From the IMG/VR virus record IMGVR_UViG_3300026484_000341, positions 1 to 30,680 of that record: a stretch of 30,680 nt of DNA. One strand, given 5' to 3'. The stretch is from a virus (taxonomy: Duplodnaviria; Caudoviricetes). The notes below the pieces were generated by a model. It was not told where the DNA came from. It saw only the letters and a program-made list of their open reading frames with translations, and did no database searches. This document shows, one piece after another, positions 1 through 21,909 of the stretch. The translations under genes and the position numbers were made by a program. The first letter of the stretch is position 1. Every line of letters starts with the position of its first letter.

Positions 1-1
1 A

Positions 2-139
2 GAGTCCATAGAAGAAGGTAGAGCAGTTTATAGTGAACTACTGCAAACTTGGCGTGATTATAAAAAAGATGGTGTTGTTAATGTTGTTAAAACAACTGGA
101 CTTCCTGAATGGTATTTAGAAAAAAGACGAGGAGCATAA
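2..139 (+). CDS. C-terminal fragment of RecE-like (DUF3799 / exonuclease VIII type) exonuclease, 5' truncated by window
   Basis: Frame 2 reads ESIEEGRAVYSELLQTWRDYKKDGVVNVVKTTGLPEWYLEKRRGA*. The G..Y...L...LPxW tail and the position directly upstream of a RecT-like gene fit a RecE/RecT pair. Confidence 0.55.
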   Translation, partial: ESIEEGRAVYSELLQTWRDYKKDGVVNVVKTTGLPEWYLEKRRGA

Positions 140-140
140 A

Positions 141-893
141 ATGGGTGCATTGGTAAATTTAGAAACAGAAGAGAGACTTTTAGAGTTAGAAGTAAAAAGA
201 TTTGAACTTGAACAAAGAAGAGCTATGGCACTAAGTAAAAGTGCCTTTTTTCCTGACAATCTAAAGGGAGATGTTGCAAGTGCAGTTATTATCTATGATT
301 TGGCTAGCCGTATGAATGTTAGTGTTATGGAAATAGCACAAAGCATCTATATTATTTACAACAAACCATCTTTTTCAACAAGCTACTTGGTTGCAAGACT
401 AAACACTAGCGGTCGCATAAAAGGCAGCTTGGTTACAGTTATAAGTGACGATAAACAGAGTGCTTACTCTTATGCTATTGATGCTGAGACTGGCGAAAAA
501 TTAGTCGGTATGACCTATACAATGGAGATTGCAAAAAAAGAGGGGCTGTTATCTAAAAAAGGTAGCAAGTGGCTTACAATGCCGGAGCTTATGCTTAGAA
601 AAAGAGCGCAATCTAGCTTTATTAATGAGTTTTTTCCTGAAGTTAAATTCGGCATGCAAACAGTAGAGGAGATTGAAGATACGCATATTATTGAAACATC
701 AATATCTAGTGGAAACGAAACAACTGATTTGAATGAAATTATTGCAAGTCCTAAAAAAACAACTAAAAAAAGAGCGACAAGAGAAAAGAAAAAAGAAGAG
801 CCAGAAAAAGAAAAAGACCTCTTAGCAGATATTGATGTAGAAGTGGCTCACGAGTATGTCGATGCAGAAACTGGCGAGGTGTTTGATGACTAG
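141..893 (+). CDS. RecT-like single-strand annealing protein
   Basis: 250 aa; SD GGAG upstream; motifs 'QSIYIIYNKPS', 'MEIAKKEG..SKKGSKWLTMPELMLRKRA..F....FPEV..G.QTVEE'; acidic tail 'VDAETGEVFDD' typical of phage recombinases. Confidence 0.75.
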   Translation: MGALVNLETEERLLELEVKRFELEQRRAMALSKSAFFPDNLKGDVASAVIIYDLASRMNVSVMEIAQSIYIIYNKPSFSTSYLVARLNTSGRIKGSLVTVISDDKQSAYSYAIDAETGEKLVGMTYTMEIAKKEGLLSKKGSKWLTMPELMLRKRAQSSFINEFFPEVKFGMQTVEEIEDTHIIETSISSGNETTDLNEIIASPKKTTKKRATREKKKEEPEKEKDLLADIDVEVAHEYVDAETGEVFDD

Positions 894-1107
894 AGAAAAA
901 GCAAAAAGCGAGCTTAAAAAGTATGTTATTTCTTCTATTTCAAGTAAAGAAATTCAACATATAAACATTAATGTTGCAAGAAGAGTTATTGATGAGATAT
1001 TTGACAATTTTGAAAAAGAAAAAGAGCAACTCAAAAAAGACAGAGACTACTGGAAGTTGAGTTTTAATAAACAAGTTTATGCGAGTAGGAGAATAAGAAA
1101 TGTATAA
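886..1107 (+). CDS. Hypothetical phage protein
   Basis: The ORF track gives 856. ATG at 886 has SD GAGGTG and overlaps the RecT stop; the end overlaps the next gene. Confidence 0.6.
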   Translation: MTREKAKSELKKYVISSISSKEIQHININVARRVIDEIFDNFEKEKEQLKKDRDYWKLSFNKQVYASRRIRNV

Positions 1108-1309
1108 GTCTTTAACAAGCATAGCAAAAATGTTTGATGTAAGCACAAACTACATAAAAAAACATTTCTCAAATGATTTTAAAGAGGGTGTGCATTATAT
1201 CTATGTCGGAAATTTAAAAAGATTTAATGTTAATGAGATGCGAAAACTCTTAACAACTAAAAAAGAAAATCATAATGAAAATCCTATTCTTGAAAGATTT
1301 TTAATTTAA
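1100..1309 (+). CDS. Excisionase / recombination directionality factor-like winged-HTH protein
   Basis: 69 aa, basic; 'SLTSIAKMFDVSTNYIKK...FKEGVHYIYVGNLKRFN' HTH plus wing; immediately upstream of the integrase. Confidence 0.65.
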   Translation: MYKSLTSIAKMFDVSTNYIKKHFSNDFKEGVHYIYVGNLKRFNVNEMRKLLTTKKENHNENPILERFLI

Positions 1310-1312
1310 AGG

Positions 1313-1321
1313 TGTTATTAT
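1313..1321 (+). promoter_or_regulatory. Putative extended -10 promoter for integrase (TGtTATTAT)
   Basis: TG-n-TATTAT between the xis stop and the integrase SD. Confidence 0.4.
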
Positions 1322-1340
1322 GTTACCTGATAGTATGAGT

Positions 1341-1361
1341 GCCACTTCTAAAAGGAGTGGT
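1341..1361 (+). promoter_or_regulatory. Hairpin occluding the integrase Shine-Dalgarno
   Basis: GCCACTTCT-AAA-AGGAGTGGT: a 9-bp stem (2 G-U) whose 3' arm contains AGGAG, upstream of ATG 1368. Confidence 0.55.
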
Positions 1362-1367
1362 AAAAAA

Positions 1368-2423
1368 ATGGCATCACATTACAAAAGAGGTAATAAAATA
1401 TGGATTACTTACTTTGTAGATAAAGTAAGACACAGAAAGTCAACAGGTCTTGATTACAATGCAAAAAACATCAAGATAGTTGAAAATGAGATTATACCTC
1501 AGTTGATGAAAAAAATAGCTACAGGTGAAATATACAAAAAAAAGCCTAAAAGTTTTGAATACTACGGCGGTATATTTTTAAAACAAAAAAGTATGAATAG
1601 GAGCTACTTTACAGCAGTTGGATATTACAAACGAGTAATAGAACACTTCAAAGGTAGAAATATTGATACTATTACAAGACTTGATATTAAAGAATATCTA
1701 ATATCACTTAATATCAAGAATATTTCAAGGAACAAGTATAAAAGTTGCGTTAAAGAGATATTTGAGCTTGCAGTGGATGATGGTGTCATACCGACAAACC
1801 CTGCTCTAAATATCAAATTTCCTCAAGATCGCAAAACAAAGATTGAATACTACACCCGTGAAGAAGTAGAAAAGTTGTTAAATGCTGCAAACGGTGTAAT
1901 GAAAGCTTATCTTGAAATAGCATTTAATACAGGTATGCGTACAGGCGAAATACTTGGCTTGCAGCTATCTGACTTTAAAGATGATGGCTACATTCATTTA
2001 AAGCGTACTAGGACGCTCGGAGTTGTTGGAGAGGGTAAGAACTACAACGCAAAGAGAAATGTGCCTTATAACGCTTATATGTATGAATTGGCTAAGGCAA
2101 TACAGCCTAAAGACAACTTGTATCTGTTTGGAAACATTGATGATGCAAGAAAGTTGAGATTTATGTGGAGAGATGTTTGCATTGATGCAGGTGTTAAAAA
2201 ACATAAACTCTATTCAACACGACATACTTTTGCAACTTTAATGCTTCAAGAAAGCATAGTTAGTATAAATGAGCTATCGGGTCTATTAGGACACTCAAGC
2301 CCTAAAGTTACACTTGCACACTATGCCAGTGTCATAGAGTCTAAAAATATTGATTTGGGATCAAATTTTGCACTTTTTAGGCACAATATGGACACAGTAC
2401 AAAATAAAGAAGCTCTAAAGTAA
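1368..2423 (+). CDS. int: Tyrosine recombinase (phage integrase)
   Basis: N-terminal arm-binding domain (YKRGNKIWITY..RHRKSTG); catalytic motifs TGMRTGE, YSTRHTFAT, LLGHSS, TLAHY. Start moved from 1320 to 1368 because of the AAGGAG SD. Confidence 0.95.
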   Translation: MASHYKRGNKIWITYFVDKVRHRKSTGLDYNAKNIKIVENEIIPQLMKKIATGEIYKKKPKSFEYYGGIFLKQKSMNRSYFTAVGYYKRVIEHFKGRNIDTITRLDIKEYLISLNIKNISRNKYKSCVKEIFELAVDDGVIPTNPALNIKFPQDRKTKIEYYTREEVEKLLNAANGVMKAYLEIAFNTGMRTGEILGLQLSDFKDDGYIHLKRTRTLGVVGEGKNYNAKRNVPYNAYMYELAKAIQPKDNLYLFGNIDDARKLRFMWRDVCIDAGVKKHKLYSTRHTFATLMLQESIVSINELSGLLGHSSPKVTLAHYASVIESKNIDLGSNFALFRHNMDTVQNKEALK

Positions 2424-2449
2424 CCTATTTAAGGTATTTTCAGCGTATA

Positions 2450-2471
2450 AAGGCACAGGATAAGCCGAGTT
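2450..2471 (-). ncRNA. Fragment resembling the 3' end of RNase P RNA (att core, not a full gene)
   Basis: Minus strand AACTCGGCTTATCCTGTGCCTT matches the conserved rnpB P4 3' strand AAC(C/T)CGGCTTAT, followed by a plausible P1 3' strand. Confidence 0.6.
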
Positions 2472-2473
2472 GC

Positions 2474-2500
2474 TTATAGTCCTTTTTTAGGGGATTATAA
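2474..2500. terminator. Imperfect hairpin between convergent int and endolysin genes, possible terminator
   Basis: TTATAGTCCTTT-TTT-AGGGGATTATAA imperfect inverted repeat. Confidence 0.35.
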
Positions 2501-2539
2501 CATAAATTGTGGCACTTATACTATCAACAAAGACACAAT

Positions 2540-2944
2540 TTAGACACACTGACTCATCTTCATAACTAGCCTAGATGCCCTATTTCCTACTTGTCTATAC
2601 CATAGGCTATCTATCATCTCTTTCGCGGCAGCTCTATAATCTTTAACTTCCAAAGCTTTCAACATTCTTTTAAACTTTAATAGTCGTGGAACTCCCAAGT
2701 TATATGCCATGTTCAATATTACTTCTTTTGCACACTCCGGTAAATCTTCAAAAAAAGAAATATTCTTTTTAACTTCACTAACTGCATCGTTAAATCTTTT
2801 TTCCAAAAGCAATTCCCCCTCAACTTCATCGAGTGGTAATTTAGTTCCATACCCTATCGTAGGAATACCTAAACTATCATTGTATGGATGTGCTACAAAG
2901 CTCTCATCTCTCTTTAGTTCTTCAAGTACATTGTTATACATCAC
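2540..2944 (-). CDS. Endolysin, GH24 / T4-lysozyme-like muramidase
   Basis: E-x8-D-x5-T triad in 'DESFVAHPYNDSLGIPTIGYG'; also 'NMAYNLG' and 'SLWYRQVGNRA'. Confidence 0.92.
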   Translation of the reverse strand: MMYNNVLEELKRDESFVAHPYNDSLGIPTIGYGTKLPLDEVEGELLLEKRFNDAVSEVKKNISFFEDLPECAKEVILNMAYNLGVPRLLKFKRMLKALEVKDYRAAAKEMIDSLWYRQVGNRASRLVMKMSQCV

Positions 2945-3405
2945 ACAACCACCTTTGTATCTACTTTGTTTTTTTTATCGAAACTTCTCATAGCTCCTAC
3001 ACCTAAAATAGATAGAAGTAGCCCTAAAATATCACCGCTACCCATATCAGGAAACTTTGGAATTTCGGGAACAGTTGCAATAATCTCAGGGTGATAAGTC
3101 AAGTAAACTGTATAACACCATACTAAAGTCATAACTATTGCCTTTGGAACATACATAAAGAATAGAGTAATAACTCCTACCCATCCAACAGCAGGTCTCC
3201 ATCCTGCTACAAACAAACTTGGATGCTTCGCTTCTTCTTCGTTAATTTTCATCTGCCCTTGCATCAATTTAGAATGTAACTGCTTTAACTGTAAATCAAG
3301 TTTTGCAAGTTCCGCAGGATCTTTGATTTTTTCACCTGTAATTGCTTCTCTTGCACTTGTTAAAATATCTCCAACATCAGATAAACTAAAATCAATTAAT
3401 CCCAT
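2941..3405 (-). CDS. Holin (3TM / GTA-holin-like family)
   Basis: 'EAKHPSLFVAGWRPAVGWV', hydrophobic helices and C-terminal 'LLSILGVGAMRSFDK'; overlaps the endolysin start. Confidence 0.85.
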   Translation of the reverse strand: MGLIDFSLSDVGDILTSAREAITGEKIKDPAELAKLDLQLKQLHSKLMQGQMKINEEEAKHPSLFVAGWRPAVGWVGVITLFFMYVPKAIVMTLVWCYTVYLTYHPEIIATVPEIPKFPDMGSGDILGLLLSILGVGAMRSFDKKNKVDTKVVV

Positions 3406-3725
3406 TACTGTCCTCCAAAGTTAAGAAAATGCATTTTTGATAGGAACTCAATAACAAGTGCTGCACCTATTGCCATATAAATAACTCGCTCAATCTTTTT
3501 AAGTCTTGCATCAATAGATCCATATTTCTCCATCTCGTTTTTATCATGGAGTATAAAGTTATCTTTGTGCATCTTCATAGTCTCATCAATCTGTGCAAGC
3601 TTGTCGTAAATATTGTTATCTACCATCTCCATTCTAACAATAGAGTTTTTCATCTCATAAAACTCATCTTTTACTTTTTCAAGGCTTGCTATTTTTGCCT
3701 CGATAACCACAATTCTGTCTTCCAT
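3405..3725 (-). CDS. Coiled-coil protein with C-terminal transmembrane helix (lysis-cassette associated)
   Basis: C-terminal 'VIYMAIGAALVIEFL'; stop overlaps the holin ATG. Start is either 3725 (MEDRI) or 3752. Confidence 0.6.
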   Translation of the reverse strand: MEDRIVVIEAKIASLEKVKDEFYEMKNSIVRMEMVDNNIYDKLAQIDETMKMHKDNFILHDKNEMEKYGSIDARLKKIERVIYMAIGAALVIEFLSKMHFLNFGGQ

Positions 3726-3787
3726 ATACAATCCAATAATATTTTTTGTCATTGTATTTAACGATACTCAATCAAAGCAATACTATT

Positions 3788-6700
3788 TTAATCATTATTT
3801 TCCTTTCGTGCTTGACTTCTTGAGTAGCTTAATGAGTTAAGCCCGATATTTTTCAATATCTCTTGTCTTGGTGTTCTAGGCTCTACAACTTTATTTCTTC
3901 TTCTATTTTTTTTGCTTCTTGCTAAACTCTCGATTAAGTTCCAACCACTATAAGCTTGAGCAGGTAGTGGCACATAGCTTTGTGTTAGGTACTTTGCATA
4001 GTCGTATGCTTTTTGTCCTGCACCTTTGTTTTTATATGTAACAGGTCGCCCATAATATGGATTTATCATTCCTGCTTTACTTGGTGCAGTGAGTGTATTT
4101 ACTACTGCATTTGTTGTTGGACCACTTATATTAGATACAAAAAAGTTTATAGGATCAGTTAGCTCAATGTATGGTATCCATCTATCAGTCTTTAAAGTAT
4201 GTATAGTGTCTCCACTTCTTCCTATGCCAAACCTACGCCCTTTGAAGTCTTCTGGCTTGTTTCCACCATAAAAAGGAATATTATCAAGTGGAGTTACTGC
4301 TCCACCTGTAAGTACATATTCAAGTCCTGCTAGTGTTCCCATTGCAAGAGCTGCTTTTTTTGCACCCTGCTTTGTTTTAAGAAGTTTCCAAATAGCAGGC
4401 ATTGTGTAATAACTCCACGATATAAAAGGACTTATTCCTGTATCCCTTAATGCTCTAAAACCTTTAGGCATAGGCTTAGAATAATCCGGCATTATTGTTA
4501 GAACTGCTTTTCTTGCTTCATCTTTACTCATACCAACTTTTTCTCTTAGATGCGCATACATTGCTATTTTATTTATAGCATCTTCCCCGTGATACATATC
4601 CTCACTAAACTTATCTATCTTTCCAAGCACACCTTTTTTCTCAAGCTTTTGCTCTCCTGCAAGTATGTCATTTAACTGGCTTCTTCCAAGTAATCCACCA
4701 TCTTTAGCCTCTAAGAAGTATTTTAAATCTTCTCCCATCTCTTCAAGCTCTTTTAAGTCTGCTTTTGTTGCCTGTCCTAGCATCTTTTTTTGCATCAGTT
4801 TCTCAAGTCTGCTACCTTCATACATCATCTTTCCTGCACGACCTATTGCTGTAACAATCTCATCAGCTCTCATTCCTGCTAAGTGCATTAAAAACTGATT
4901 GCTCATAAAGTTATTAATATGTGATGGAACATTCCAAACAGTTTTTGACTTTTTCCAAAGAGATAAATAGTTTTTCCATATCCTCGCAAAAGCTCCATCG
5001 CTTCCATGAAAAGTATTAAATATCTCATCATTTCTAGCACTAATATCATCAAACACATCTTTTCGTATATGTTTTCCTGCAAGCACCCCATATTTAGGAC
5101 TGTTTGGAGCTTTTATGAAACCTGCTGCACTTATCTCATCATCACTAAACTTCTCAGCATCTTTGAGTATTACTTCATCAATCTTTGATACATCTTCTAA
5201 AAACTTTGCATTATCTGCCATTCTTTTTAATCGCATAAGAGTCTCAGGAATTGTTATAGCACCATCTCTTATCTCATTCATAGCATCGCGTTCTGCTCTG
5301 GTCCAATCTCTTCTTAGCTCATATTTTCCATTTGCCAGTTTTTGAAGTCTAACACCACCATCTCGTAAAGGTTTTTGCGTATTTGCTATAAACTTAGGAT
5401 CAACAAGTAACTTTTTAGCTTCTTTTTCACTTATTACTTGTATATTACCTCGTTTGTGTATATCATCAATCTTAAAACCTTTTTTCATAAGATTTTTTAC
5501 ATCTTTAAAAAAGTGTTGCTCATAATTTCTATGTATGTAGTACCCTGCCCACTCGTCATATTGTTCCTGTGTTAATACACCCTTTGATACTAAATCCTTG
5601 CTTAAATTATCAATATCTTGTTTAAGCTTGTCAGCAAGTGGTTTTAGAGTTGGATTTATATCCTTTGTCTCTCCGGCTATGTAGTCATGCAATGAAACAC
5701 GATCCGCTTCATTTAGCTCTTTTAAGGCTTTATGTAGCCTCTCAAGCTTAACACTCATACCATTTGTTGAAGCAGTTGCACTCTCTCTTAAATCGTGATA
5801 TTTTGCTCCTAAAGTATCAAAAAACCATCTTTCTAATGTACTTGCAGCATCTCCCCACTCTTTTTGAGCCTCTTTGCTTACTATTTTAGATACATGGGCA
5901 TAACCTTTTTTCTTTGCTTCTTTTACTTTGTTTAAAAACTCCTCTTTAGTTTGACTCATTTGTTTGTCTTGTGGTATAATCTCATCAGCACTTCGGTTTT
6001 CCCACTTATTGAGTGCGGATGTTTTACCTTTATTGGTCGTGCTTTTTGCACCGCTGGAGTGCTTGAAATACATCAAGTTACCATCAGTAGCTTTTATCAT
6101 ATTCTTTATACTTCCAATATCTTTATTAAATGATGTTATCTGTTTCAAGTTTCCATTATTATCTTTTACTATCCCTACATAATGAACAAGTCCATTTTCA
6201 TCTTTGTATGGTTTGTAATATTCTATCTGCTTTTTAATAGGATTTTTTATAACAAAAAGTGGCTCTTCAAGTGCATCTTTAAATGCTCCGGTTAGCCAAG
6301 CTCTATCTTGAAAATATGTATTATCTGTAAAGTGCTTGTATATCTTTGATACATTAAAAGAAACATCGCCTATCGGAGTTTTAACTTTTGTCCATTCCCT
6401 GGTATTAAACATATTTTTAAATTCTTGAAAGCTTAAAGGCTTCGGCAACTCGCTAGCATCTTTCATTATCTCATTTTCAAGTACCCTATCACTACTTTTA
6501 TTGAGATACTTATCTTCTAACTCTCTTGCGTGTTTTTGAGTAAGTCCATCAATGAGAGCATCATCGCTGTTATTAAATCGCATTACTGCATCTTCCGGTG
6601 CAATATCTTCACTACTGAATGGTGTTATCTTCTCTCTTTGCTCTGGGGTATAGTCTGCCCTTGCCTGAACATCTCTTGCTTCTATCTCTCCTGCGAGCTT

Positions 6701-9700
6701 CTGATACATATTAAAAGCTTCCTCTTTACCACCATCTTTATATTTACTCTCAAGCTCACTAAGCTGCTTTAGCTTTTTATCTCTTATGAAATCATCTGGC
6801 TCAAACTCTAACTCATATTTTAAAAGATTTATCTTTTTCTTGAAGTCATTATAAAACTCTTGTGCTGATCCTCCACGCGCAAAGCCTTCCTCTTTTTGAA
6901 TAGAGTGTTGCAACTCATGCAATAGAGTAGATTTAAAGTCATCTTTCGTTTTAAAGTCTTTCATACCTACCTCTATTCCATCTCTTGAAAAACTTGATCC
7001 ACTGCCATTGTGAAACTTAATATTTATATCTTTTAACTCTGGGTAATTATCAAATAACTCTTTATGATCCAGTATATTTTCAAGCTTTGTTCCTTCTTTA
7101 GTATTTACATATCTAGCTAGATTTTTTAACTTAGCTTTACTATCATCAATCTCAAACCGCTCTAAAGTATCATATTTTCCATCAAAAGTCTTTCCGGAAC
7201 TCTTTGCAGCATCAAAACCTTTTGCCTTGCTACCTGCGAATAGTCCAGCTTTAAATCCGCCCTCTTCTTCTTCAAAGAGTTTAGGTGCTGCTTTTTTAAG
7301 TGCATTTATTCCTACTGCTCCTATTCCTGCACCTATTAAAATATCAATAAGGTCTGTTTTCCCATCTCCATTATAATCTCTTTGATTTATAGCGGTATCA
7401 CTTCCGCCTGCAAAAGCGCCTGCCATTGTATGCGTAGGATTTACAAATAAAATACCCTCTTTTTCTGCAACTTTTGCTATCTTTTCAGCTCTTGCACCAT
7501 CTATTTTAGGATTATATTTTGATACTTTCAAGCCCTTTTTCTTTAGTAATTCTATAGTTTCTTTGCTAGTACCATTTGGAACTAAAGCTACTTTGAACTC
7601 TCCTAAATCAACTTTTCTAAGTATCTTAGTTTCAAAATATTCAGTTGGCATCTCTTGCATTGCTGTTTTTAGATTTTCAATATCATCTTTTATACTTTTT
7701 GGTAAGTCTTTAATACCGTACTCATTTAATACTCTATCAAGTGGAGCATCTGCAATTTCTGATAAAATTCCGTTTAGTGTATCATTTGAAAAACTGGTGT
7801 TTCCTGTATGCTCATTCAAAGCATCAGATATTTTAAAGTATTCATCCTCTACCTCTTTTTTAACAACTTCAAATTCATCTTTAGAAACAAGTCTATCTTT
7901 TGCTTTTTGTATCTGTGCTAGTGATTTAAACTGTGGTGTGTGTAATGCTCTTATACTTCCTGTTCCATAGTTAAAGCCCTCTCCACCTCTTAAATCTTTT
8001 TTTAGTTTTTTAACTACATTATCTATGTTGTGGTCTATCCACTTTTGCCTGCCGTTTCTATCTGTACCGTTATAAATTTTTTCTTCTGCTCCATGCTGTT
8101 TATAATAATCATCTACATAATCTTTAAACTCTTGCTTGTGTTTTTTGTCTATAATCTTAGATACATTTGATCGTGTTGCATAAAAATCCGGTGATTTCCC
8201 TTTTTCAATTTTTCTTAGTGTATCTTTCATTATTTGAGCATAATTTTTTGCAACTCTTTGTATTTGCGTTTCGCTCCAATCGTTTATATCATCGCCTATT
8301 TTATTTTTCAAAAACTCTTTAACTTTTGAGATAAACTTATCATCATTCACATAGTCTCTGTTTAATTTTCCATCTTCATAAAAAGGCTTAAATGTTTTTG
8401 CAATTTCTATATTCTCTTTTTTTGGTGCATCATATTTTAAAACTTTATCTTTCTTATATCCTTTGCTTTCAAGGAATTTCATTTTTAAGCCTATATCATC
8501 TATAAGATTATCGACATCTACATACCCGCCTCTAGCTACTAAATCGTGATATTTATCTAAATCATCTTCAATATTTCTAATTGCTTTATGTGATAATTGT
8601 TTTTTTATTTGTGGGTATCGTGGACTGTAAATATCTGCACCATAAGTTTTAGTGTCTCTTTTAGGTGTTATTATCTCTTTATCACCTAAAAGTGTAATAT
8701 TTCCAAAACCATCAAGCGGAGTATCTTTTTTAGTAACTGCAATACTTGGTACTGCTAAACCTCCTTGCTTATCAGCAAACTTTACATTATCCTCAGTAAG
8801 GTTGTGCTGTGCTATTAAATCTTTTTCTTCTTTTTGAGCTTTACTTTTAACTGGACTCATAGAGTTAAAACTATTTCCACGCTTCTGCACCTCTGGGTTA
8901 AAGTTTACCCTATCAAGTGCATCTACTGCAATATCTTTTAACTTACCTCTTATTGTTCCATTTTTAAGTGCTTGTTTGACTGCTGTATATCCACCTAAAC
9001 CTAAGATAAACTTCTCAGGATCAAAAGTTATATTTCCGTTTTCATCCTGTCCTATTCCTGCATACGCTCCAACTGCTACATTGTCTAAACCTTTTGCAAA
9101 AACTGCATTTGCTTCTTCCCATTCACTTGGTGATAGCTTAACATCTGTATCATCAAGCTTTGCAAGTTCTGCTTTGTAGTCAATATTATTTTCACTATTA
9201 AATGACTTCGCATAGTCTGGGTGATTATCTAAAGTGCTTAAATCAGTTTCAAGCTTACTAAGAAGATCATCATCATATTTTCCTTTGTAAAGCTTATCTA
9301 CATCACCTTTTGTTAAATGAAAATCATGCGCATAGTTTTTCTCGTAAACTGCTCTATCGTAAGCGTGCTTATTCTCTCCACCATATCCATCAAGCTCTCT
9401 ATATCCACCTTTGCTTACCAACCTTTGTGGACTTCTTGCATCTTTGGCACTTACACTTTCTCTCATGCTTAATAGCTCTTGTAGTCGTGGGTGTGCTGCT
9501 ATTTTTTGGTATCTCTGCATTAATTCCGCATCTGCATTATATGGTACCGGTATGTTATTGTTAAAATCTCCACTTACAAAGTTTGGATTATAAGGCTGTT
9601 CTGGTTGCTGTGGATAAATACTCTCTTTAGTATATTGTGGTTGTACTTCGTATTTATGTTGATAAATAGGTTCTAAACCTTGTGCTACCCTCTTTTTATC

Positions 9701-10606
9701 TGCTTCTTTTGCCAATACTTCTAAGGCTGTATTTATATCCATTGTTGCAGGTGGATTGTTCGGTCTCATTTGGAAATTTGGCTCTTTTTTAGCACCAAAG
9801 CCCGCCTGCTCTACTTTGTAAGCATCCGGTACTTTTGGATATTTTCCTTGCAAAATCTCTCCGCTAATTGCTTCTGTTTCTTGTGGCGATAATCCTAGAG
9901 CGTCTGCATTATTTAAGATCGCGCTTGCTATGTCTTCATCACTTTTTGCGCCTTGTACCATTTCAGGCTTAATTACATTATTTACCCTGCCTTTTGTAAA
10001 AGCGGATATAATGCCATTTAGTCCTGCAACTATGCCTGCACCAATCTCTGCATTATGCACTTTCTCTGTTGTACTCATTGCATCGTTTCCATAGTCTTTT
10101 GCAGCCATAGTTCCTGCGCCAATACCTGCACCTAAACCCATACTTGTTGCTACTGCTCTTGGTTTTGTTTTGGTTGCACCAACTGCTAATTTTTCAATAA
10201 GACTTCCTGCCTTACCTATTTTTTGCCCTTTAGATACTATTCCTGCTGGTGTAAGATTTAAAGGGTCTCCTATCATTTCTCCTGCTAGTCCAACCCATTC
10301 ATTGTCTATATTTCTATCTAGTGTCTGACTTGCTACTCTTGCCCTGTTTTGTAAAGATTTATTACCAAACAGTTTAGCTGCCGATGCTGTGTAGTCTGTA
10401 ATATTTTTTGCTGCTCCGTGAATAAAATCCTCTGCAAAATCTGGTATATACTCATCTATTTTATCCATTCTTACTTGACTATTATTCTGCTCTTGTTTAA
10501 ACTTAGCATAAAGCGGATCTTGTTTGTATGATGAATTTTGTTGCTGATTATTTTGTGATTGTTCTTGCTTGAATTTCTTATAAAGAGGATCTTGTCTGTA
10601 GTCCAT
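3788..10606 (-). CDS. Large internal virion / DNA-ejection polyvalent protein (ART-like domain, LPD23-like plus HExxH metallopeptidase, PBECR-type nuclease)
   Basis: 2272 aa at the end of the structural module; Gly/Ala-rich membrane-like segments; 'RFEIDDS..LENILDHKELFDNYPEL..STLLHELQH.IQ..EGFARGG..Y..LAGEIEAR'; 'VKTPIG...R......ALEEP.FVI...YYK....ITSF'; helical C-terminal region 'DYS....R..GISPFISW.Y'. Confidence 0.8.
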   Translation of the reverse strand: MDYRQDPLYKKFKQEQSQNNQQQNSSYKQDPLYAKFKQEQNNSQVRMDKIDEYIPDFAEDFIHGAAKNITDYTASAAKLFGNKSLQNRARVASQTLDRNIDNEWVGLAGEMIGDPLNLTPAGIVSKGQKIGKAGSLIEKLAVGATKTKPRAVATSMGLGAGIGAGTMAAKDYGNDAMSTTEKVHNAEIGAGIVAGLNGIISAFTKGRVNNVIKPEMVQGAKSDEDIASAILNNADALGLSPQETEAISGEILQGKYPKVPDAYKVEQAGFGAKKEPNFQMRPNNPPATMDINTALEVLAKEADKKRVAQGLEPIYQHKYEVQPQYTKESIYPQQPEQPYNPNFVSGDFNNNIPVPYNADAELMQRYQKIAAHPRLQELLSMRESVSAKDARSPQRLVSKGGYRELDGYGGENKHAYDRAVYEKNYAHDFHLTKGDVDKLYKGKYDDDLLSKLETDLSTLDNHPDYAKSFNSENNIDYKAELAKLDDTDVKLSPSEWEEANAVFAKGLDNVAVGAYAGIGQDENGNITFDPEKFILGLGGYTAVKQALKNGTIRGKLKDIAVDALDRVNFNPEVQKRGNSFNSMSPVKSKAQKEEKDLIAQHNLTEDNVKFADKQGGLAVPSIAVTKKDTPLDGFGNITLLGDKEIITPKRDTKTYGADIYSPRYPQIKKQLSHKAIRNIEDDLDKYHDLVARGGYVDVDNLIDDIGLKMKFLESKGYKKDKVLKYDAPKKENIEIAKTFKPFYEDGKLNRDYVNDDKFISKVKEFLKNKIGDDINDWSETQIQRVAKNYAQIMKDTLRKIEKGKSPDFYATRSNVSKIIDKKHKQEFKDYVDDYYKQHGAEEKIYNGTDRNGRQKWIDHNIDNVVKKLKKDLRGGEGFNYGTGSIRALHTPQFKSLAQIQKAKDRLVSKDEFEVVKKEVEDEYFKISDALNEHTGNTSFSNDTLNGILSEIADAPLDRVLNEYGIKDLPKSIKDDIENLKTAMQEMPTEYFETKILRKVDLGEFKVALVPNGTSKETIELLKKKGLKVSKYNPKIDGARAEKIAKVAEKEGILFVNPTHTMAGAFAGGSDTAINQRDYNGDGKTDLIDILIGAGIGAVGINALKKAAPKLFEEEEGGFKAGLFAGSKAKGFDAAKSSGKTFDGKYDTLERFEIDDSKAKLKNLARYVNTKEGTKLENILDHKELFDNYPELKDINIKFHNGSGSSFSRDGIEVGMKDFKTKDDFKSTLLHELQHSIQKEEGFARGGSAQEFYNDFKKKINLLKYELEFEPDDFIRDKKLKQLSELESKYKDGGKEEAFNMYQKLAGEIEARDVQARADYTPEQREKITPFSSEDIAPEDAVMRFNNSDDALIDGLTQKHARELEDKYLNKSSDRVLENEIMKDASELPKPLSFQEFKNMFNTREWTKVKTPIGDVSFNVSKIYKHFTDNTYFQDRAWLTGAFKDALEEPLFVIKNPIKKQIEYYKPYKDENGLVHYVGIVKDNNGNLKQITSFNKDIGSIKNMIKATDGNLMYFKHSSGAKSTTNKGKTSALNKWENRSADEIIPQDKQMSQTKEEFLNKVKEAKKKGYAHVSKIVSKEAQKEWGDAASTLERWFFDTLGAKYHDLRESATASTNGMSVKLERLHKALKELNEADRVSLHDYIAGETKDINPTLKPLADKLKQDIDNLSKDLVSKGVLTQEQYDEWAGYYIHRNYEQHFFKDVKNLMKKGFKIDDIHKRGNIQVISEKEAKKLLVDPKFIANTQKPLRDGGVRLQKLANGKYELRRDWTRAERDAMNEIRDGAITIPETLMRLKRMADNAKFLEDVSKIDEVILKDAEKFSDDEISAAGFIKAPNSPKYGVLAGKHIRKDVFDDISARNDEIFNTFHGSDGAFARIWKNYLSLWKKSKTVWNVPSHINNFMSNQFLMHLAGMRADEIVTAIGRAGKMMYEGSRLEKLMQKKMLGQATKADLKELEEMGEDLKYFLEAKDGGLLGRSQLNDILAGEQKLEKKGVLGKIDKFSEDMYHGEDAINKIAMYAHLREKVGMSKDEARKAVLTIMPDYSKPMPKGFRALRDTGISPFISWSYYTMPAIWKLLKTKQGAKKAALAMGTLAGLEYVLTGGAVTPLDNIPFYGGNKPEDFKGRRFGIGRSGDTIHTLKTDRWIPYIELTDPINFFVSNISGPTTNAVVNTLTAPSKAGMINPYYGRPVTYKNKGAGQKAYDYAKYLTQSYVPLPAQAYSGWNLIESLARSKKNRRRNKVVEPRTPRQEILKNIGLNSLSYSRSQARKENND
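5951..5980 (+). promoter_or_regulatory. Antisense sigma70 promoter inside the polyvalent-protein gene
   Basis: TTGACT (5951-5956), 18-bp spacer, TATAAT (5975-5980), with an extended -10 TG (TGgTATAAT). Confidence 0.7.
5987..6063 (+). ncRNA. Putative 77-nt structured cloverleaf-like antisense RNA
   Basis: Starts 7 nt after the -10. The ends pair over 10-11 bp (AGCACUUCGG/CUGGAGUGCU) and enclose three hairpins. GC is 36/77 (47%) in an AT-rich gene. Confidence 0.55.
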
Positions 10607-10630
10607 TTCAATAGCCTATTTTTTATTGAT

Positions 10631-10662
10631 AGACTACCAAAATGTATTTTTCAAAATAAGAG
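10631..10662 (-). promoter_or_regulatory. Late promoter motif, copy 1
   Basis: Minus strand CTCTTATTTTGAAAAATACATTT-TGG-TAGTCT upstream of the polyvalent gene. Confidence 0.7.
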
Positions 10663-10666
10663 TATT

Positions 10667-11506
10667 TTAACTATAACCTTGTAGCTTTTTCCATTCTAAA
10701 AACTGTTTCTCTTCATCATCAGTAGTTTTTTGAGATACATTTGTTTTATTTTTCTGAGTATTTTTCTTCTGCGTATCAAGTGAGTAAGTATCACTAAACC
10801 ATCCATCTTCTTTTTTTATGTTTGGAATAGTTCCTGTATTGATATAATGTTGAGATACTTGTCTTTTTATTCCCTCATCTAAATCATCCCACTCAGGAAC
10901 AAGAGCAGCAGGGTTTTTCGTGAATATTTTAGTGCGTTCTAGTTTATACTTTTCATCATTGTTTTTTGCACCTAAAGATGATTGAAATTTCTGCATATCA
11001 AGGTCATGTGTTCTATCAAACTTCTGCACATTAAAGTTAAAAGACTTATCAAACTGTGACCCTTGTTGAGAGAGTCTCTGATTTTGCAAATACTCTTTTT
11101 CTAGCCTATTTTGCTGTGATTGATACTTATCATTTTGAAGTCTTTGTGAAAACTGTCTATTTTTTAAGTTCATTGCATCATACTGTTGCTGCATACCTGC
11201 ATTTCGCTTATCTGTTAGGTACTTTAAAAAGTTTCCTATTTTTGCAGTATTCTCCTCTCCAGTTTGTAAGTGTACTTGTGGAGCTTTCATACCGTTTGGA
11301 AAATTATTAGGAAAATATGAGGACTGCTGCTGTGATTGTGCAAGTAAGCTAATAAACTTGTTTTTCTTTGGCTTTGGCGGATCAAAATTCATTGTTACCT
11401 TGTTTCCATAGCTTCCATCAGGTCGCTGTAACCCTGCTCGGTAGTCAATACTTTTAGTACCTATTACAGTACCATCATCTCTTTTCATATTCATTTGAAG
11501 TTCCAT
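10667..11506 (-). CDS. Probable internal virion (ejection) protein
   Basis: 279 aa, Gln/Asn-rich and helical; directly upstream of the giant injected protein, as in podovirus ejectosome operons. Confidence 0.55.
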   Translation of the reverse strand: MELQMNMKRDDGTVIGTKSIDYRAGLQRPDGSYGNKVTMNFDPPKPKKNKFISLLAQSQQQSSYFPNNFPNGMKAPQVHLQTGEENTAKIGNFLKYLTDKRNAGMQQQYDAMNLKNRQFSQRLQNDKYQSQQNRLEKEYLQNQRLSQQGSQFDKSFNFNVQKFDRTHDLDMQKFQSSLGAKNNDEKYKLERTKIFTKNPAALVPEWDDLDEGIKRQVSQHYINTGTIPNIKKEDGWFSDTYSLDTQKKNTQKNKTNVSQKTTDDEEKQFLEWKKLQGYS

Positions 11507-11724
11507 ATACTCTTTAACTCATGCACTTCTTTCCATTTTTTAGCAATTTCATTTGTTTTTTGTTCATACTCATCTGCAAGATTTTTCAAAGAAGTTGTAT
11601 CAACGGCATCTGCATTTATTACTTTTATCATTGTTTTTTTTATATCATTTAGCTGCTCTTGAATAACAAGAATATTATCTTTTGTTTCATGATATAAACC
11701 TCGTGCATAAATTCTTTCATCCAT
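11491..11724 (-). CDS. Hypothetical coiled-coil protein
   Basis: ATG 11724 with AAGG SD, downstream of late promoter copy 2; overlaps the next gene. Confidence 0.6.
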   Translation of the reverse strand: MDERIYARGLYHETKDNILVIQEQLNDIKKTMIKVINADAVDTTSLKNLADEYEQKTNEIAKKWKEVHELKSIWNFK

Positions 11725-11744
11725 TTTCAAACCTTTTTAACTGT

Positions 11745-11776
11745 AGATTACCAAAATAGAATTTTTAAAATAAGAG
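11745..11776 (-). promoter_or_regulatory. Late promoter motif, copy 2
   Basis: Minus strand CTCTTATTTTAAAAATTCTATTT-TGG-TAATCT; ungapped match to copy 1. Confidence 0.7.
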
Positions 11777-11780
11777 CATT

Positions 11781-13139
11781 TTAATCACCAATTACAGGAT
11801 AACCCCTATCTATCATATTGTGTTTTGCAAAAAGCTCACCTAAATCACTTCTTGGAATAGGATATCCCCATTTGTTTATTTTAAAAACATTTAATTTTGT
11901 CTTGCTCATCGTATATACATAGTCTGAAAAATTTGCTATTGCATAAGAATAGTTATATAGAAATGATGTTCCTTTCTGAATAATATCTGTAGATTTATAG
12001 CTTATATAATTTTTTGAATAGTATATTTCACCACTTGGACCTATTGAAAAATATGCCTCTTTTGCATCTCCAAGATAACAAATTTTAGATGCAGGAGTGC
12101 TTGCCTTCGGATAGTCGTGCAAATTATGTTTTTCGTTATAATGCAAAACCTTTCCATCTCTGATATAATCAAAACGAATTTTAGCATCTGATGCAAAATA
12201 GTCTAATCCTTGTATCTCTTTTATTTCTCCTCTATCAACATAGTATGTATTGCTATTTGTCATAAAATATGCATCATCATAAGCTGATTTTTTATTTCCT
12301 CTTGATGCGCTAGACGCGCTGAAATCACTTGTTGCAATATTTCCATTATCGACATCTTGCAAAGAAATAGTTCCGTGCATACCTACAATATAAACATTAT
12401 CACCATCACTAATCATAAACGGTACAACTTCGTATATTCCAACTTGTAGTATTTTTGTAAATCCATCTTCACTATACTCATAGATTTTATTTCCTGCATA
12501 AAAGAAGTTTCTTTTATTTATCGAATACACAAATAGAGGAGTTCCAAAATCATCTACATTAACATCAAAAAGTTTTACTTTATCAACTCCTGAAAATTTG
12601 TAAAAAGCATAAACATCACCGCTAGTATTTTCGCTACTGCTTCCGTCATCTGTTTTTTCAAAAATTACCAAAAATTTATTTATTCCATCATCATATCTTG
12701 AAACATTTTTTCTATATGTTGATATTTCATTTGATACATCAACAGTTCCTATAAACTCTACATTTTGAGGACACATTGCAGTAGATACAATCATAGGCTT
12801 TTCTCTTCCAAGTTCAACTTTTACAGGCAAAACAGCATCTTCAAGACTTTTATTCCTATCATATACAATAGGATCATCAGATACATTGTTTACATCAGTT
12901 GCATCTGGCTCGTTTCCTCTTTCCATATCTTTTATTATGTCTGGTGAGTCAGGCACATAAACATATCGCTCTTCTCCGGTTTGAGAGTTTTTTATCATCA
13001 TATTTATAGATGCTATATAAGTACCATTTATAATCTCTTTTGCAAGTAGATTATCATCGTATGCTGGGTGAGGATAAGGTATGCTTATCTCTTCTGCCAT
13101 TGATAAAACTCCTAAAATTAAAAACAAAATAGACTTCAT
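11781..13139 (-). CDS. Moron-like exported protein with Sec-type signal peptide, beta-rich, function unknown
   Basis: MKSILFLILGVLSMA|EE signal-like N-terminus; GGAG SD; separate AT-rich upstream region containing TAAAAT; Tyr/Phe-rich short-strand pattern. Confidence 0.6.
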   Translation of the reverse strand: MKSILFLILGVLSMAEEISIPYPHPAYDDNLLAKEIINGTYIASINMMIKNSQTGEERYVYVPDSPDIIKDMERGNEPDATDVNNVSDDPIVYDRNKSLEDAVLPVKVELGREKPMIVSTAMCPQNVEFIGTVDVSNEISTYRKNVSRYDDGINKFLVIFEKTDDGSSSENTSGDVYAFYKFSGVDKVKLFDVNVDDFGTPLFVYSINKRNFFYAGNKIYEYSEDGFTKILQVGIYEVVPFMISDGDNVYIVGMHGTISLQDVDNGNIATSDFSASSASRGNKKSAYDDAYFMTNSNTYYVDRGEIKEIQGLDYFASDAKIRFDYIRDGKVLHYNEKHNLHDYPKASTPASKICYLGDAKEAYFSIGPSGEIYYSKNYISYKSTDIIQKGTSFLYNYSYAIANFSDYVYTMSKTKLNVFKINKWGYPIPRSDLGELFAKHNMIDRGYPVIGD

Positions 13140-13178
13140 AACATATCTCCAAAAAATATGTTATATTTTACTACAATA

Positions 13179-14228
13179 TTATGTAAAATTCCTGATAGCC
13201 ATAATGTAAATATCAATACTATCAAATAAAATATCTACCATTACGATACTCTGCGTGCTATCTATTGTTTTATCACCCATTGCATCAAAAGCCAAAGTTA
13301 CATTATGCCCGTTTGGTATGAACTCAATAGTGTATAACTTACCTAAATCTATCTCATAATTACCATCTGCATCTTTTGTTATATCAAAGCTTAAATCTCC
13401 ACCGACATCAACATAATAATAGTTACCTACGATCTCTTTAAAGTTTTTTGCTATGTTTCCACTTGGTCCATCCATACCATCAAAAGGCTGTGGCTCTGCA
13501 CCTCCTACCGGTGCATCAACTTCTTCTATTGCATCACCTGCTGCATTTACTGCAAGAAATTTACCTGCTGTATATGTATCTGGTGTATCTGTAAGCTCTA
13601 AAAATGTTGTTGCTCCGCTTCCAGTTCCACTGTCTCCATCTTTTCCTACAAAACGAATAGCACTGCTCCATACTCCATCACCCTGCTTAAAAGAGATATA
13701 AATATCTCCATCCTGAAAATTATCATGCCATGATGATCCATCGTTTGAATATCTAAAAAATATTGTCTCTGTATAGACTGTATCACTATCTCTATGCATA
13801 AAGTAGTCACGCATAGCATCATTATAGCTAGCATAAATAGCATCTGCATCACTTGCATACCCATTGTACCCTACCCATAAAAAAGAGAGTGCTTTGTATA
13901 TAACTGCAAATGCTAAACCCTCATCAGTATCTAGTACTCCATCAATCGTCGGCTCTGTTGGAACTCTTATAAACTCAGTAGATGATATTTTTTTAAACTC
14001 TGTTGCAGTGCTATCATTACTCTCTAAAAGAGTTAATGGTGTTGTATTGAGTGCTGCATCTCTCAACCCAAAGTATAAAGCCTCTAACTTGCTAGTATTA
14101 TCTTTGCTCTCTAGCGGATGGGCAACATAATTTCCTGAGTCATCTTTACTGTCATCACTTTTCTTATATGCATCAACTGTGTCTGTGATAATTGTATCAA
14201 TATAATTAAGTGCTTTTGATACTAACAT
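13179..14228 (-). CDS. Tail/appendage protein: adaptor-like N-terminal domain plus fibre-like C-terminal part
   Basis: N-terminal ~140 aa resembles 23353..23778; 'FLELTDTPDTY..GKFLAVNAAGDAIE' is a common fibre linker motif. Confidence 0.6.
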   Translation of the reverse strand: MLVSKALNYIDTIITDTVDAYKKSDDSKDDSGNYVAHPLESKDNTSKLEALYFGLRDAALNTTPLTLLESNDSTATEFKKISSTEFIRVPTEPTIDGVLDTDEGLAFAVIYKALSFLWVGYNGYASDADAIYASYNDAMRDYFMHRDSDTVYTETIFFRYSNDGSSWHDNFQDGDIYISFKQGDGVWSSAIRFVGKDGDSGTGSGATTFLELTDTPDTYTAGKFLAVNAAGDAIEEVDAPVGGAEPQPFDGMDGPSGNIAKNFKEIVGNYYYVDVGGDLSFDITKDADGNYEIDLGKLYTIEFIPNGHNVTLAFDAMGDKTIDSTQSIVMVDILFDSIDIYIMAIRNFT

Positions 14229-14237
14229 ATTCTATCC

Positions 14238-14996
14238 TTACGCTTTGTAAATTTTTGCAATTTTTATCTGAGTAAGATTTTTATTGTCTTCAATCTCTTT
14301 GTTAAGCTCACCTGCTTTTTGAATTGCTTTGAGCTGTGCAAGCTTGTACTGCACCTCTGTAGCTGAAACTCTTACTTGTTGCGCTGTAAGACCTACTTTT
14401 GCCCTCTCGTTATCTGCTTGTGCTTGATAGAGCGGTATTTTTGCTTCTTCTAGCCCTACTTGAGCCTGCTTTATTAAAATATCTTTATCCATTATTTCAA
14501 TCTTTTTATCTTCTGCTTCAATCTCTTTTGTTTTAAGTTCTATATTTTTTGTTATCTCTTGAATTTGAACAGGCATAAGTGTCTCGATCTCTGCTTTCGC
14601 TTTTGCTACATTTACTGCTGAGTTGTTCAGCTTTGCCTTATCATCATTTTTCATTGACTCTATTTTCTGAACACTCTCATTTGTTCTATTTGTATCGTCT
14701 ATCTGCATTGATGCTATCTTCTGAGCTGTTTCATCTTTCATAGTCTGAATTTGAGCATCTTGCAGCGGTGTTTGACCGGCTACTGCTATTGCCTGCACTG
14801 TTACATTCGTTATTGTATTTGTAAAGAAGTCATAGATGCGTTTTGCTTTTTCATCATCACTGATTGATGTATGGTCCGTTAAAAAATTGTCTAAATCTTG
14901 TTTTGCCTTACCAAGAATAGAAATATCATTTCCATCAGCATCTTTTATAAATGCAACTGTATCAAGTATCTCAGTAAGTGTACTTTGTAATCCCAT
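14238..14996 (-). CDS. Coiled-coil virion protein, function unknown
   Basis: 252 aa, heptad-rich, in the structural operon. Confidence 0.55.
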   Translation of the reverse strand: MGLQSTLTEILDTVAFIKDADGNDISILGKAKQDLDNFLTDHTSISDDEKAKRIYDFFTNTITNVTVQAIAVAGQTPLQDAQIQTMKDETAQKIASMQIDDTNRTNESVQKIESMKNDDKAKLNNSAVNVAKAKAEIETLMPVQIQEITKNIELKTKEIEAEDKKIEIMDKDILIKQAQVGLEEAKIPLYQAQADNERAKVGLTAQQVRVSATEVQYKLAQLKAIQKAGELNKEIEDNKNLTQIKIAKIYKA

Positions 14997-14997
14997 C

Positions 14998-15606
14998 CTA
15001 ATACTCCTTTATCTCAACATCTGCCAACTCTGCATTAACTGTAACATCTTCAAGAACAACACTACCAAGGACTACATTTCCAAGCTCACTATTTATGCTG
15101 TAGTTGGGCAAAGATACATCTTCAAGTGTAGTATTTCCGATATTGACATCGTAGTTAAGTTTAGTCATGTTGTCTTTTAAAATAAACCTCTTTTTTAGTG
15201 TTTGCATTACTGTAATTTCCAAAGGGATTTCACAATAATAAAAACCATCTATAATGCTTGCAAGATTTCCACTGTTTAAAATAACGCCATTCTCATTAAA
15301 AAGTTCGTATGGAACTGTATAGTTTGGCTTATACCCTATAACAAAGTGAGGTGTAGGGTGTCCTATCTTTTTAACAATTCTAAATTTTGAGTTTATCTTA
15401 GCCAATAAATAGCCATCAAAATAAGGTGCTTTTGATAAAGCTTTGAAAAATATACCGCTTTGCTGCATTGTATATTCAAGTGGCTCTATCTCATGTGATG
15501 CAGAATTAAATGCATAGAGAGATACAACCGGCTCACTATCTGTCTGAACAATAATGCTAAAGTCAAGACCTCGTGTGATATTTGTTGTATCTACTCTAAC
15601 TACCAT
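14998..15606 (-). CDS. Hypothetical virion protein
   Basis: 202 aa, beta-rich, tightly packed in the operon, AGGA SD. Confidence 0.55.
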   Translation of the reverse strand: MVVRVDTTNITRGLDFSIIVQTDSEPVVSLYAFNSASHEIEPLEYTMQQSGIFFKALSKAPYFDGYLLAKINSKFRIVKKIGHPTPHFVIGYKPNYTVPYELFNENGVILNSGNLASIIDGFYYCEIPLEITVMQTLKKRFILKDNMTKLNYDVNIGNTTLEDVSLPNYSINSELGNVVLGSVVLEDVTVNAELADVEIKEY

Positions 15607-15614
15607 GAAGTATC

Positions 15615-16175
15615 CTAGTACGCTACTGCTACATCACTGTAAACTGGTGCATCAGGATCTATAACCTGCTCTACTGTACTATCAACTGTGCGTATTCTCT
15701 CTTCAACAATAATTCCATGCTCAGGACTCTCAATTGTAACAAGGAACTCACCCTCTGTTTGGATTGCAAACTCTGGCGTTACATAAACACCCGTATTTCC
15801 AACCTGTGTAAGCGTTGCACCATCTGCCACTGATGATCTTAGTTTTGTTCTAAGATAAAGCTTTGTTGCTGTTGCTTTTGTAACATACACATACTTTCCT
15901 GTAGCATATTCAACAACATCACCACTTACAACATCATGCCCACTATCTACAGTGATATAAGTAGCACCGTATGGAGCATAACCGTTTACTGTAGCAGTAT
16001 GAGCCGTTGCAATACTCTCAACTGCCTCACTCATACCACCTGCAACTGATGTTGTATCTGTAAGGTTATTTGTTGGTGCATACACTACACTAAACTCATC
16101 CGATGCTGCACCCAAAAGTGTTGCTTTCGTTGAAACAACTACATCAAAATTTTGCCCTATTTCGTAAGTCTTCAT
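15615..16175 (-). CDS. Hypothetical virion structural protein (beta-rich)
   Basis: 186 aa, Thr/Val/Ala-rich; strong AAGGAG SD. Confidence 0.6.
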   Translation of the reverse strand: MKTYEIGQNFDVVVSTKATLLGAASDEFSVVYAPTNNLTDTTSVAGGMSEAVESIATAHTATVNGYAPYGATYITVDSGHDVVSGDVVEYATGKYVYVTKATATKLYLRTKLRSSVADGATLTQVGNTGVYVTPEFAIQTEGEFLVTIESPEHGIIVEERIRTVDSTVEQVIDPDAPVYSDVAVAY

Positions 16176-21888: not shown

Positions 21889-21909
21889 ATATAACCCTTT
21901 TAAATAGAT

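Follow-up and report, generated by a model that had tools for sequence, protein, structure and literature searches.

The DNA analysed here, referred to as the window, is the whole 30,680-nucleotide (nt) stretch of the Caudoviricetes record IMGVR_UViG_3300026484_000341. Its gene for a 2272-amino-acid (aa) polyvalent protein encodes a predicted ribonuclease (RNase) domain of the BECR fold, and the linker codons directly behind this domain contain, when read on the opposite strand, a near-consensus promoter followed by a predicted 77-nt structured RNA. Comparison with related sequences indicates that this cassette of nuclease and RNA is real and widespread; it is apparently undescribed. A preliminary description of the window had proposed that the nuclease and the overlapping antisense RNA form a portable unit, and the recurrence of the unit behind related domains throughout the family bears this out. 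There is about an even chance, in our view, that the RNA is a built-in antitoxin that would bind and block the adjacent RNase, following the logic of type III toxin-antitoxin systems but not their layout.

The promoter reads TTGACT-18 nt-TATAAT with an extended TG, is found where the preliminary description had placed it, and matches the consensus at 11 of 12 positions. Fourteen sites on the two strands of the whole window reach an additive score of at least 10.5, and this one is at the top with 12.5. Promoter-like sites are common in this DNA without being enriched (53 in positions 1-16000, as against 64.5 in shuffled sequences), and the site is by itself therefore weak proof. The transcription start at A5987 is a prediction from the promoter spacing only.

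The interval 5987-6063, the predicted transcript, folds on the plus strand with -29.3 kcal/mol (z-score -4.85, with none of 200 shuffled sequences as good), which makes it the most stable 77-nt plus-strand window in the 30 kb; the messenger RNA (mRNA) strand of the same interval reaches -19.7 kcal/mol (z-score -2.97). An 11-base-pair (bp) closing stem, P1, encloses three arms at exactly the coordinates given earlier, so that the window's copy has a four-way junction, with loops of 3, 6 and 5 nt and 4 G-U pairs in a total of 26 pairs (counted on L077, an identical copy); only nested folds were computed. The content of guanine and cytosine is 46.8% in the RNA and 34.8% in the gene, where 1.1% of the 77-nt windows are equally high. 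None of 2000 synonymous recodings that kept codon usage, and none of 2000 that used codons uniformly, matched the stability of the fold. In these respects the preliminary description, which had reported a three-arm fold with a long closing stem and an elevated base composition, stands as it was. The RNA covers no translation start, and no intrinsic terminator is called behind it.

Features of the promoter-RNA unit, its host gene and the plasmid relatives (positions are those of the window, except in the last row)
Feature	Position	Strand	Remarks
-35 hexamer TTGACT	5951..5956	+	opposite strand encodes the linker 'SQ' codons
Extended -10, TG-n-TATAAT (TG 5972-5973, TATAAT 5975-5980)	5972..5980	+	the 'IIP' codons reversed
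Predicted 77-nt RNA	5987..6063	+	5' end from promoter spacing, 3' end from closing stem
P1 closing stem, 5' strand	5987..5997	+	pairs with 6053-6063, which overlaps the domain's last codons K-H-S
P2: 3-bp stem, single 3'-side bulge C6016, 5-bp stem-loop	6000..6019	+	best-conserved arm in the subfamily
P3 (6026-6037) and P4 (6039-6051), variable arms	6026..6051	+	replaced or merged into one arm in relatives
Weak hairpin 3' of the RNA	6075..6093	+	not called as terminator
PBECR2-related BECR-fold domain, ~aa 1381-1515, isoelectric point 9.3, predicted RNase	6062..6466	-	H50, R60, K90, T116 conserved (141-aa numbering)
PBECR5 match, aa 589-797 of the polyvalent protein	8216..8842	-	no promoter-RNA unit behind it
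Polyvalent protein, 2272 aa	3788..10606	-	terminal gene of the structural module
Three-hairpin RNA motif in plasmid loci L148, L149, L150, L154	~1860-2005	-	invariant junction bases, 3'-side bulges, then terminator-like hairpin

At the gathering threshold, Rfam 15 has no match in the window or in 20 related loci, and the sole sub-threshold match is a chance small nucleolar RNA on the other strand (E 1.3). Two other roles for the transcript were considered and rejected. A small peptide encoded by the RNA is rejected on the grounds that 3 of 16 units have no candidate frame and that the frames of the others show no relationship in sequence, and a trans-acting small RNA on the grounds that the host genome has no second match to the RNA at E<=0.001.

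The same arrangement is found behind most related domains. The DNA-level set comprises 38 distinct domains, with the window's own sequence included as L077 and with duplicates, three hits lacking the C-terminus and two with short or masked flanks dropped. At a score of at least 10, a promoter lies antisense behind 29 of the 38 domains, as compared to 2 on the sense strand, 4 inside the domain and 8 further downstream, and the proportion among 471 background windows is 10.6%; at a score of at least 11, the counts are 16 antisense, 0 sense, 1 inside the domain and 2 further downstream, with 1.7% in the background. At the protein level, the reversed-promoter linker motif ('IIP...VK/SQ'), a pattern composed after the sequences had been inspected, occurs behind 42 of 53 internal domains and inside 6 of 53. 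Behind the domain, ATA encodes the isoleucine of [IST]I in 14 of 21 cases, as compared to 78 of 204 elsewhere. Of 40 predicted transcripts, 35 were folded, five with weak or distant promoters being omitted; z-scores of -2 or lower were obtained for 25 of the 35, and 28 are closed at the ends, in that the base at which pairing begins is no more than 8 nt from the assumed start and has its partner at the far end. The 28 closed units comprise 15 with two arms, 8 rods and 5 cloverleaves, and only 4 have a U-rich tail. Since the relatives are not independent, all of these figures are counts and not p-values. In L058, L064, L066 and L084, where the domain is C-terminal, the promoter and the RNA are found past the stop codon, in non-coding DNA, and 5 of the 7 Helicobacter loci examined (L118 left out) share a nearly identical terminal unit.

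Among 11 hand-picked and related units, both sides have changed at 15 of the 19 pairs in P1 and the bulged P2. In these stems 74.6% of cells are paired (60.7% when shuffled), and the covariation score is 0.495, as compared to 0.246 for shuffled alignments and at most 0.193 for slid controls. These comparisons indicate that the structure of the unit is under selection and is kept while its sequence changes, and they agree with the earlier suggestion that an xIIP-type linker, an antisense promoter and a covarying stem would occur together across homologues.

Scans of viral contigs with the domain and with two DNA patterns gave no true relatives, and the covariance model has no match in those 48 loci or in 2 others; a scan of genome contigs with the domain alone also gave no match. 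Of the units on which it was trained, the covariance model R1 recovers 10 of 11, but no others; it has weak matches in the host genome, and its 4 weak matches in 149 family genomes are all in unrelated genes. A stand-alone copy of the window's unit was found neither in the DNA of 193 genus genomes nor in the proteins of 352 family genomes, where only G003 has the unit, together with the domain.

The nuclease domain has 140 relatives, and among 55 aligned homologues, 19 match PBECR2 (PF18810) at E<=0.01. The window's domain itself has no Pfam match and falls below the curated PBECR2 cut-off; by sequence it is related to PBECR2 but is not a member by that cut-off. The conserved residues are H50 (46/55), R60 (55/55), K90 (52/55) and T/S116 (52/55), and the conserved histidine and threonine or serine agree with the PBECR pattern of Iyer et al. 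2017 (PMC5512222; this paper and the others cited below are drawn on for the parts of their text that were available). A structure model with a predicted local distance difference test (pLDDT) score of 96 has an N-terminal helix followed by a sheet of 4-5 strands, resembling BECR toxins. The top five structural matches are a toxin of a toxin-antitoxin system, colicin D (twice), BrnT and CdiA, with Z values of 4.7-5.9 (colicin D: Z 5.5, root-mean-square deviation 3.0 over 79 residues), and with all of these below 8 the support for the BECR fold is moderate. When viral models are compared, the domain has 6 matches at E<=0.001, all of them to proteins of the MuF or polyvalent type. The ESM Atlas points weakly to PBECR2/3 and MuF_C clusters, recognition being below the Atlas threshold, and a sequence search found no solved structure. 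The BECR-fold assignment of the preliminary description is supported by the model, by these structural matches and by the PBECR2 hits among the homologues, and the domain is probably an RNase.

The matches to colicin D, the length of 77 nt and the four-way junction are the points in favour of another proposal of the preliminary description, namely that the RNA is a transfer RNA (tRNA) mimic or decoy substrate for a tRNase of the colicin D/E5 type. The hallmarks of such a mimic are absent. ARAGORN recognises none of the 35 units at its 100% and 90% thresholds and one at 80%, and a tRNA scan of the window found none; only one of the 35 units has CCA close to its 3' end, no T-loop pattern is seen, and the window's copy has no 7-nt anticodon loop. 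Cloverleaves make up only the 5 closed units counted above, and alignment to 27 host tRNAs is never better than E 1.6. We consider a tRNA mimic very improbable.

The unit is largely restricted to RNase-type domains. In 18 genes chosen for a PBECR2-like domain, with domains assigned by Pfam and our own profile and some domain ends estimated, a unit was counted where a promoter is combined with a closed fold of -0.2 kcal/mol per nt or lower. Such a unit follows 21 of 25 PBECR1/2/3-type domains and 0 of 12 ART, LPD, peptidase, ParB, SNF2, ResIII or MuF domains; it is seen at 9 of 216 background positions, two of which are apparent units behind stretches that Pfam does not name. The multi-domain proteins L104, L105 and L099 have one unit behind each PBECR-type domain, which is more than the silencing of one mRNA would need. 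The preliminary description had seen no comparable promoter behind the other cargo domains of the window's gene, and no comparable unit is seen here; the statement has to be amended in that the gene contains a second BECR-class domain, PBECR5, also without a unit. It might still be argued that a structure and a promoter arose by chance in a linker under low constraint, given that AT-rich DNA commonly has promoter-like sites, but the controls refute this, with the synonymous recodings, the promoter counts, the fold counts, the covariation and the domain specificity all contradicting it.

Units also occur beside domains that are not recognised. L101 (aa ~1050-1156) and L111 (aa ~200-340) contain a Pfam-less domain, similar between the two by eye, that is followed by a promoter-RNA unit; this domain is a candidate for an unrecognised BECR-type family, and the promoter-RNA unit may serve as a DNA marker for unrecognised RNase domains. 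In L098 (open reading frame (ORF) 1474-6894, aa ~1000-1042), a 120-nt closed unit with its promoter stands behind a stretch in which no nuclease is recognisable and shortly ahead of an ART domain, and may be an exception or a remnant.

The units can be exchanged and stacked. The protein P0003 is the same as the window's for 1517 residues and thereafter has a different unit. L078, with a domain 88% identical to the window's, has a unit of the P0003 type, in which the P1 ends and P2 are retained. L054 has two units under one promoter, separated by a 4-nt junction, and of these the one nearer the promoter is similar to that of another gene in this genome; P0004 also holds two units. Six short ORFs (P0002, P0025, P0033 and P0144-P0146), compared as proteins only, consist of the last ~13 domain codons, or none, plus 1-3 units and a promoter. 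By analogy, these nuclease-tail ORFs and the tandem units resemble orphan immunity arrays. An orphan-like cassette is also present within a gene, in L103 (ORF 4063-7671, aa 790-856), where a second unit stands behind a short duplicate of the domain tail.

Since relatives switch sequence at the unit edges and the units are imperfect palindromes with bulges, they could conceivably act at the level of DNA, as single-strand hairpins that mark the ends of cassettes for domain shuffling of polyvalent genes. Integron attC sites are comparable DNA-level hairpin signals. However, in 28 of 35 units the promoter is so placed that pairing begins at or close to the predicted +1, and the other shuffled domains have no unit, and we regard a DNA-level signal as scarcely probable. 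Arms that are exchanged around a constant core although the protein is identical, together with the strict linkage to RNA-acting domains, would also suit an RNA that is a cofactor and not an inhibitor, forming a ribonucleoprotein with the domain as a scaffold, sensor or specificity part in which P3 and P4 tune the target. This is improbable, although somewhat less so than the DNA-level signal, as the variable part is base-paired and offers no open guide, the host genome lacks the second match mentioned above, and a host-type promoter would suggest expression at a time when the protein is not made.

Beyond the phylum, 6 of 7 loci were examined, L151 ending at the record edge. Four are stand-alone PBECR2 genes on plasmids of E. 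coli and Pseudomonas, in which a convergent promoter-like site (score 9-11) lies ~170 nt past the domain. The three-hairpin RNA motif of these loci has no Rfam match; two-sided changes are seen at 8 of 29 pairs in the 4 sequences, two of which are nearly identical, and whole-span z-scores are weak (-0.4 to -2.6). The junction bases are invariant in non-coding DNA, where simple cis-antisense pairing demands no particular sequence, and this favours an RNA that binds protein. In the MuF-PBECR2 genes of Thermus and Meiothermus phages (L152 and L153), similar stem-rich sequence with a possible pseudoknot pairing, noted by eye, follows after ~1850 on the minus strand, and only one of the two has a promoter with a score of at least 8.5.

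The invariant junction bases bear directly on type I-like antisense control, in which the convergent transcript would pair with the mRNA where the nuclease domain ends, or read into the domain, and so expose leaky late transcripts in the lysogen to decay by RNase III, the fold serving only to stabilise the RNA. The convergent layout over the toxin 3' end within a prophage is that of txpA/RatA and bsrG/SR4 (PMC4147584), perfect complementarity is automatic, and the scarcity of U-rich tails makes read-through into the domain likely. Such decay would not explain why RNase domains have one unit each while ART and other domains have none, why junction bases are invariant in non-coding DNA, or why units occur in tandem, and it could presumably not hold back a nuclease that is needed in quantity at induction. 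It is precisely these features that an RNA antitoxin does explain, and this reading is favoured for that reason; antisense decay on its own seems rather unlikely, if clearly less so than a cofactor. A protein-binding antitoxin and antisense decay could coexist.

If the RNA is an antitoxin, the following sequence of events can be envisaged. The host-type promoter in the opposite-strand linker codons would produce a 77-nt end-closed RNA, which the lysogen would make while the late genes are silent. Terminators being mostly absent, the 3' end would be formed by processing or by trimming back to P1. The RNA would then bind and block the adjacent RNase domain, each nuclease domain thus carrying its own RNA antidote, and would restrain the RNase during induction and assembly. 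The protein would enter the next cell without the RNA and cut host RNA there, with lysogens that hold a compatible RNA being protected. The stand-alone plasmid versions may act as toxin-antitoxin or abortive-infection modules.

Several observations weigh against an antisense-encoded antitoxin of this kind. The strand is one: the preliminary description had held that the structure favours the antisense strand, which is true of the window's copy, but across the family only 19 of 35 units have a better z-score on the antisense strand than on the sense strand, and a strand-neutral mismatch count of 9 G-U to 2 A-C among 20 (5.7 and 4.3 in shuffles) is small, so that the strand assignment would rest mainly on the promoter and the fold evidence for it is weaker. 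The covariation set was selected by hand from related sequences, and the architecture is highly variable among units (rod, three-way and four-way). The window's PBECR5 has no unit at either of two end points tried, the promoter is missing behind 2 of 4 PBECR1 domains, and a promoter without a closed fold follows a further PBECR1 domain and one PBECR2 domain. The different unit behind an identical nuclease in P0003 means that recognition is not strictly allele-specific and would rest on the shared P1 end and P2; this exchange and the unit-less PBECR5 oppose a strict rule of cognate antitoxins. In structure, the domain resembles BECR toxins only modestly (best Z 5.9), and a Foldseek search of the PDB gave none at E<=0.001. 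Finally, the evidence from Helicobacter pylori is only suggestive, as the positions of its antisense RNAs are not mapped onto units.

In H. pylori, two genes are of interest by what we take their products to be: HP0488 is presumably a PBECR gene, and HP1334 presumably encodes an NYN-type nuclease, which would make HP1334 and the small RNA HPnc6910 another nuclease-small RNA pair. HP1334 binds this abundant RNA (PMC8322730). Antisense RNAs validated by northern blot are listed for HP0488 (HPnc2240 and HPnc2250) and for HP1116 (HPnc5970 and HPnc6000; PMC8322730 Table 1). HP1116 is the orthologue of jhp1044 (PMC549213; PMC3221604), and jhp1044 orthologues hold four PBECR domains (PMC5512222). Like the window's unit, these RNAs are small and antisense; they lie inside a jhp1044-type gene, two per gene, and are listed without a function or a link to PBECR in the available text (PMC8322730). 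By the shared gene, and not by mapped position, the HPnc RNAs in HP1116 may be units of this class, which might assign a function to antisense RNAs validated in 2010.

Type I toxins of the txpA/bsrG kind are small stand-alone proteins, whereas the toxin here would be an RNase domain within a 2272-aa protein, with one RNA per domain. The position of the RNA, convergent with the toxin mRNA and complementary to it, is nonetheless that of the B. subtilis prophage elements, in which an antisense RNA overlaps the 3' end of the toxin coding region (PMC4147584). RNA antitoxins that bind RNases are known from ToxIN, AbiQ and CptIN (PMC5086642) and from RCd22-AbiF (PMC12373285). The former, type III systems share with the cassette an endoribonuclease, a small structured RNA and tandem RNA units that need processing, but their RNAs are near-identical pseudoknot repeats encoded upstream on the same strand, in one operon with a terminator in between (PMC5086642). 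The window's RNA is downstream, antisense, within the coding frame and under its own promoter, the toxin fold is BECR, and there is a single unit, with the tandem units of relatives being mutually dissimilar. AbiF-RCd22, from the C. difficile prophage phi027, likewise has a prophage toxin beside a structured RNA that neutralises it by direct binding, in cis and in trans, although there the RNA lies upstream of a Cas13-related toxin, is transcribed together with it, has a terminator and matches an Rfam motif (RF03085; PMC12373285).

As in the PBECR polyvalent proteins of Iyer et al. 2017 (PMC5512222), a PBECR2-related domain with its histidine and threonine or serine is encoded in a phage structural module; the available main text of that paper does not contain 'antisense' or 'noncoding' and mentions no immunity partner of PBECR domains. 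In MuF and other polymorphic toxins (PMC5576092) and in BECR-Tox2/Imm2 (bioRxiv 10.64898/2026.08.28.747851), the toxin domain is likewise swappable and is followed directly by its cognate immunity element. That element is a small protein, whereas in the window it would be an RNA encoded on the other strand, and this would allow the toxin domain to be in mid-protein. The main text of the latter work, a 2026 classification of BECR proteins, lacks 'antisense', 'RNA antitoxin' and 'noncoding' in the part available, and a literature search that largely excluded subscription papers found no publication linking PBECR or jhp1044-type genes to an antisense RNA partner.

It is possible, although we hold it somewhat less probable than the antitoxin role in the window itself, that the PBECR RNases in general, which are reported for up to 26% of the polyvalent proteins of phages, rely on RNA and not on protein for immunity. 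Each would then travel with an antisense-encoded RNA in its linker codons, and orphan arrays would protect against incoming nucleases as the RNA counterpart of the immunity genes of polymorphic toxins. Polyvalent proteins hold predicted RNases in mid-protein, with no room for an immunity gene, and a dual-coding RNA gene would offer an answer to how the phage survives. The common 'IIP...VK/SQ' linker motif would be explained as a reversed promoter, and the compact versions on E. coli and Pseudomonas plasmids (L148, L149, L150 and L154) would be the simplest systems of the class.

The window belongs to a temperate phage or prophage, with genes for an integrase, a RecT-like protein, a terminase, an SU10-type portal and capsid, a holin and an endolysin. 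Gene position and literature (PMC5512222) suggest that the polyvalent protein is part of the virion or is ejected. Its sole Pfam match above the cut-off is PBECR5, and this unit-less domain may be otherwise controlled or inactive. Directly after the polyvalent gene, beside the holin and endolysin genes, ORF 3405-3752 on the minus strand encodes 115 aa with, by eye, a coiled coil and a C-terminal membrane segment. The preliminary description had noted no gene for protein immunity, which is plausible; this ORF has no PHROG match and looks like a lysis-module membrane protein, although it could have a role in immunity instead. Elsewhere in the window, a strong hairpin on both strands (21907-21987, -27.7 kcal/mol on the minus strand) lies in the gap between two minus-strand genes and is possibly a terminator, and the large terminase gene (27878-30304, minus strand) encodes an intein that includes a homing endonuclease of the LAGLIDADG type (Pfam Hom_end_hint and LAGLIDADG_3).

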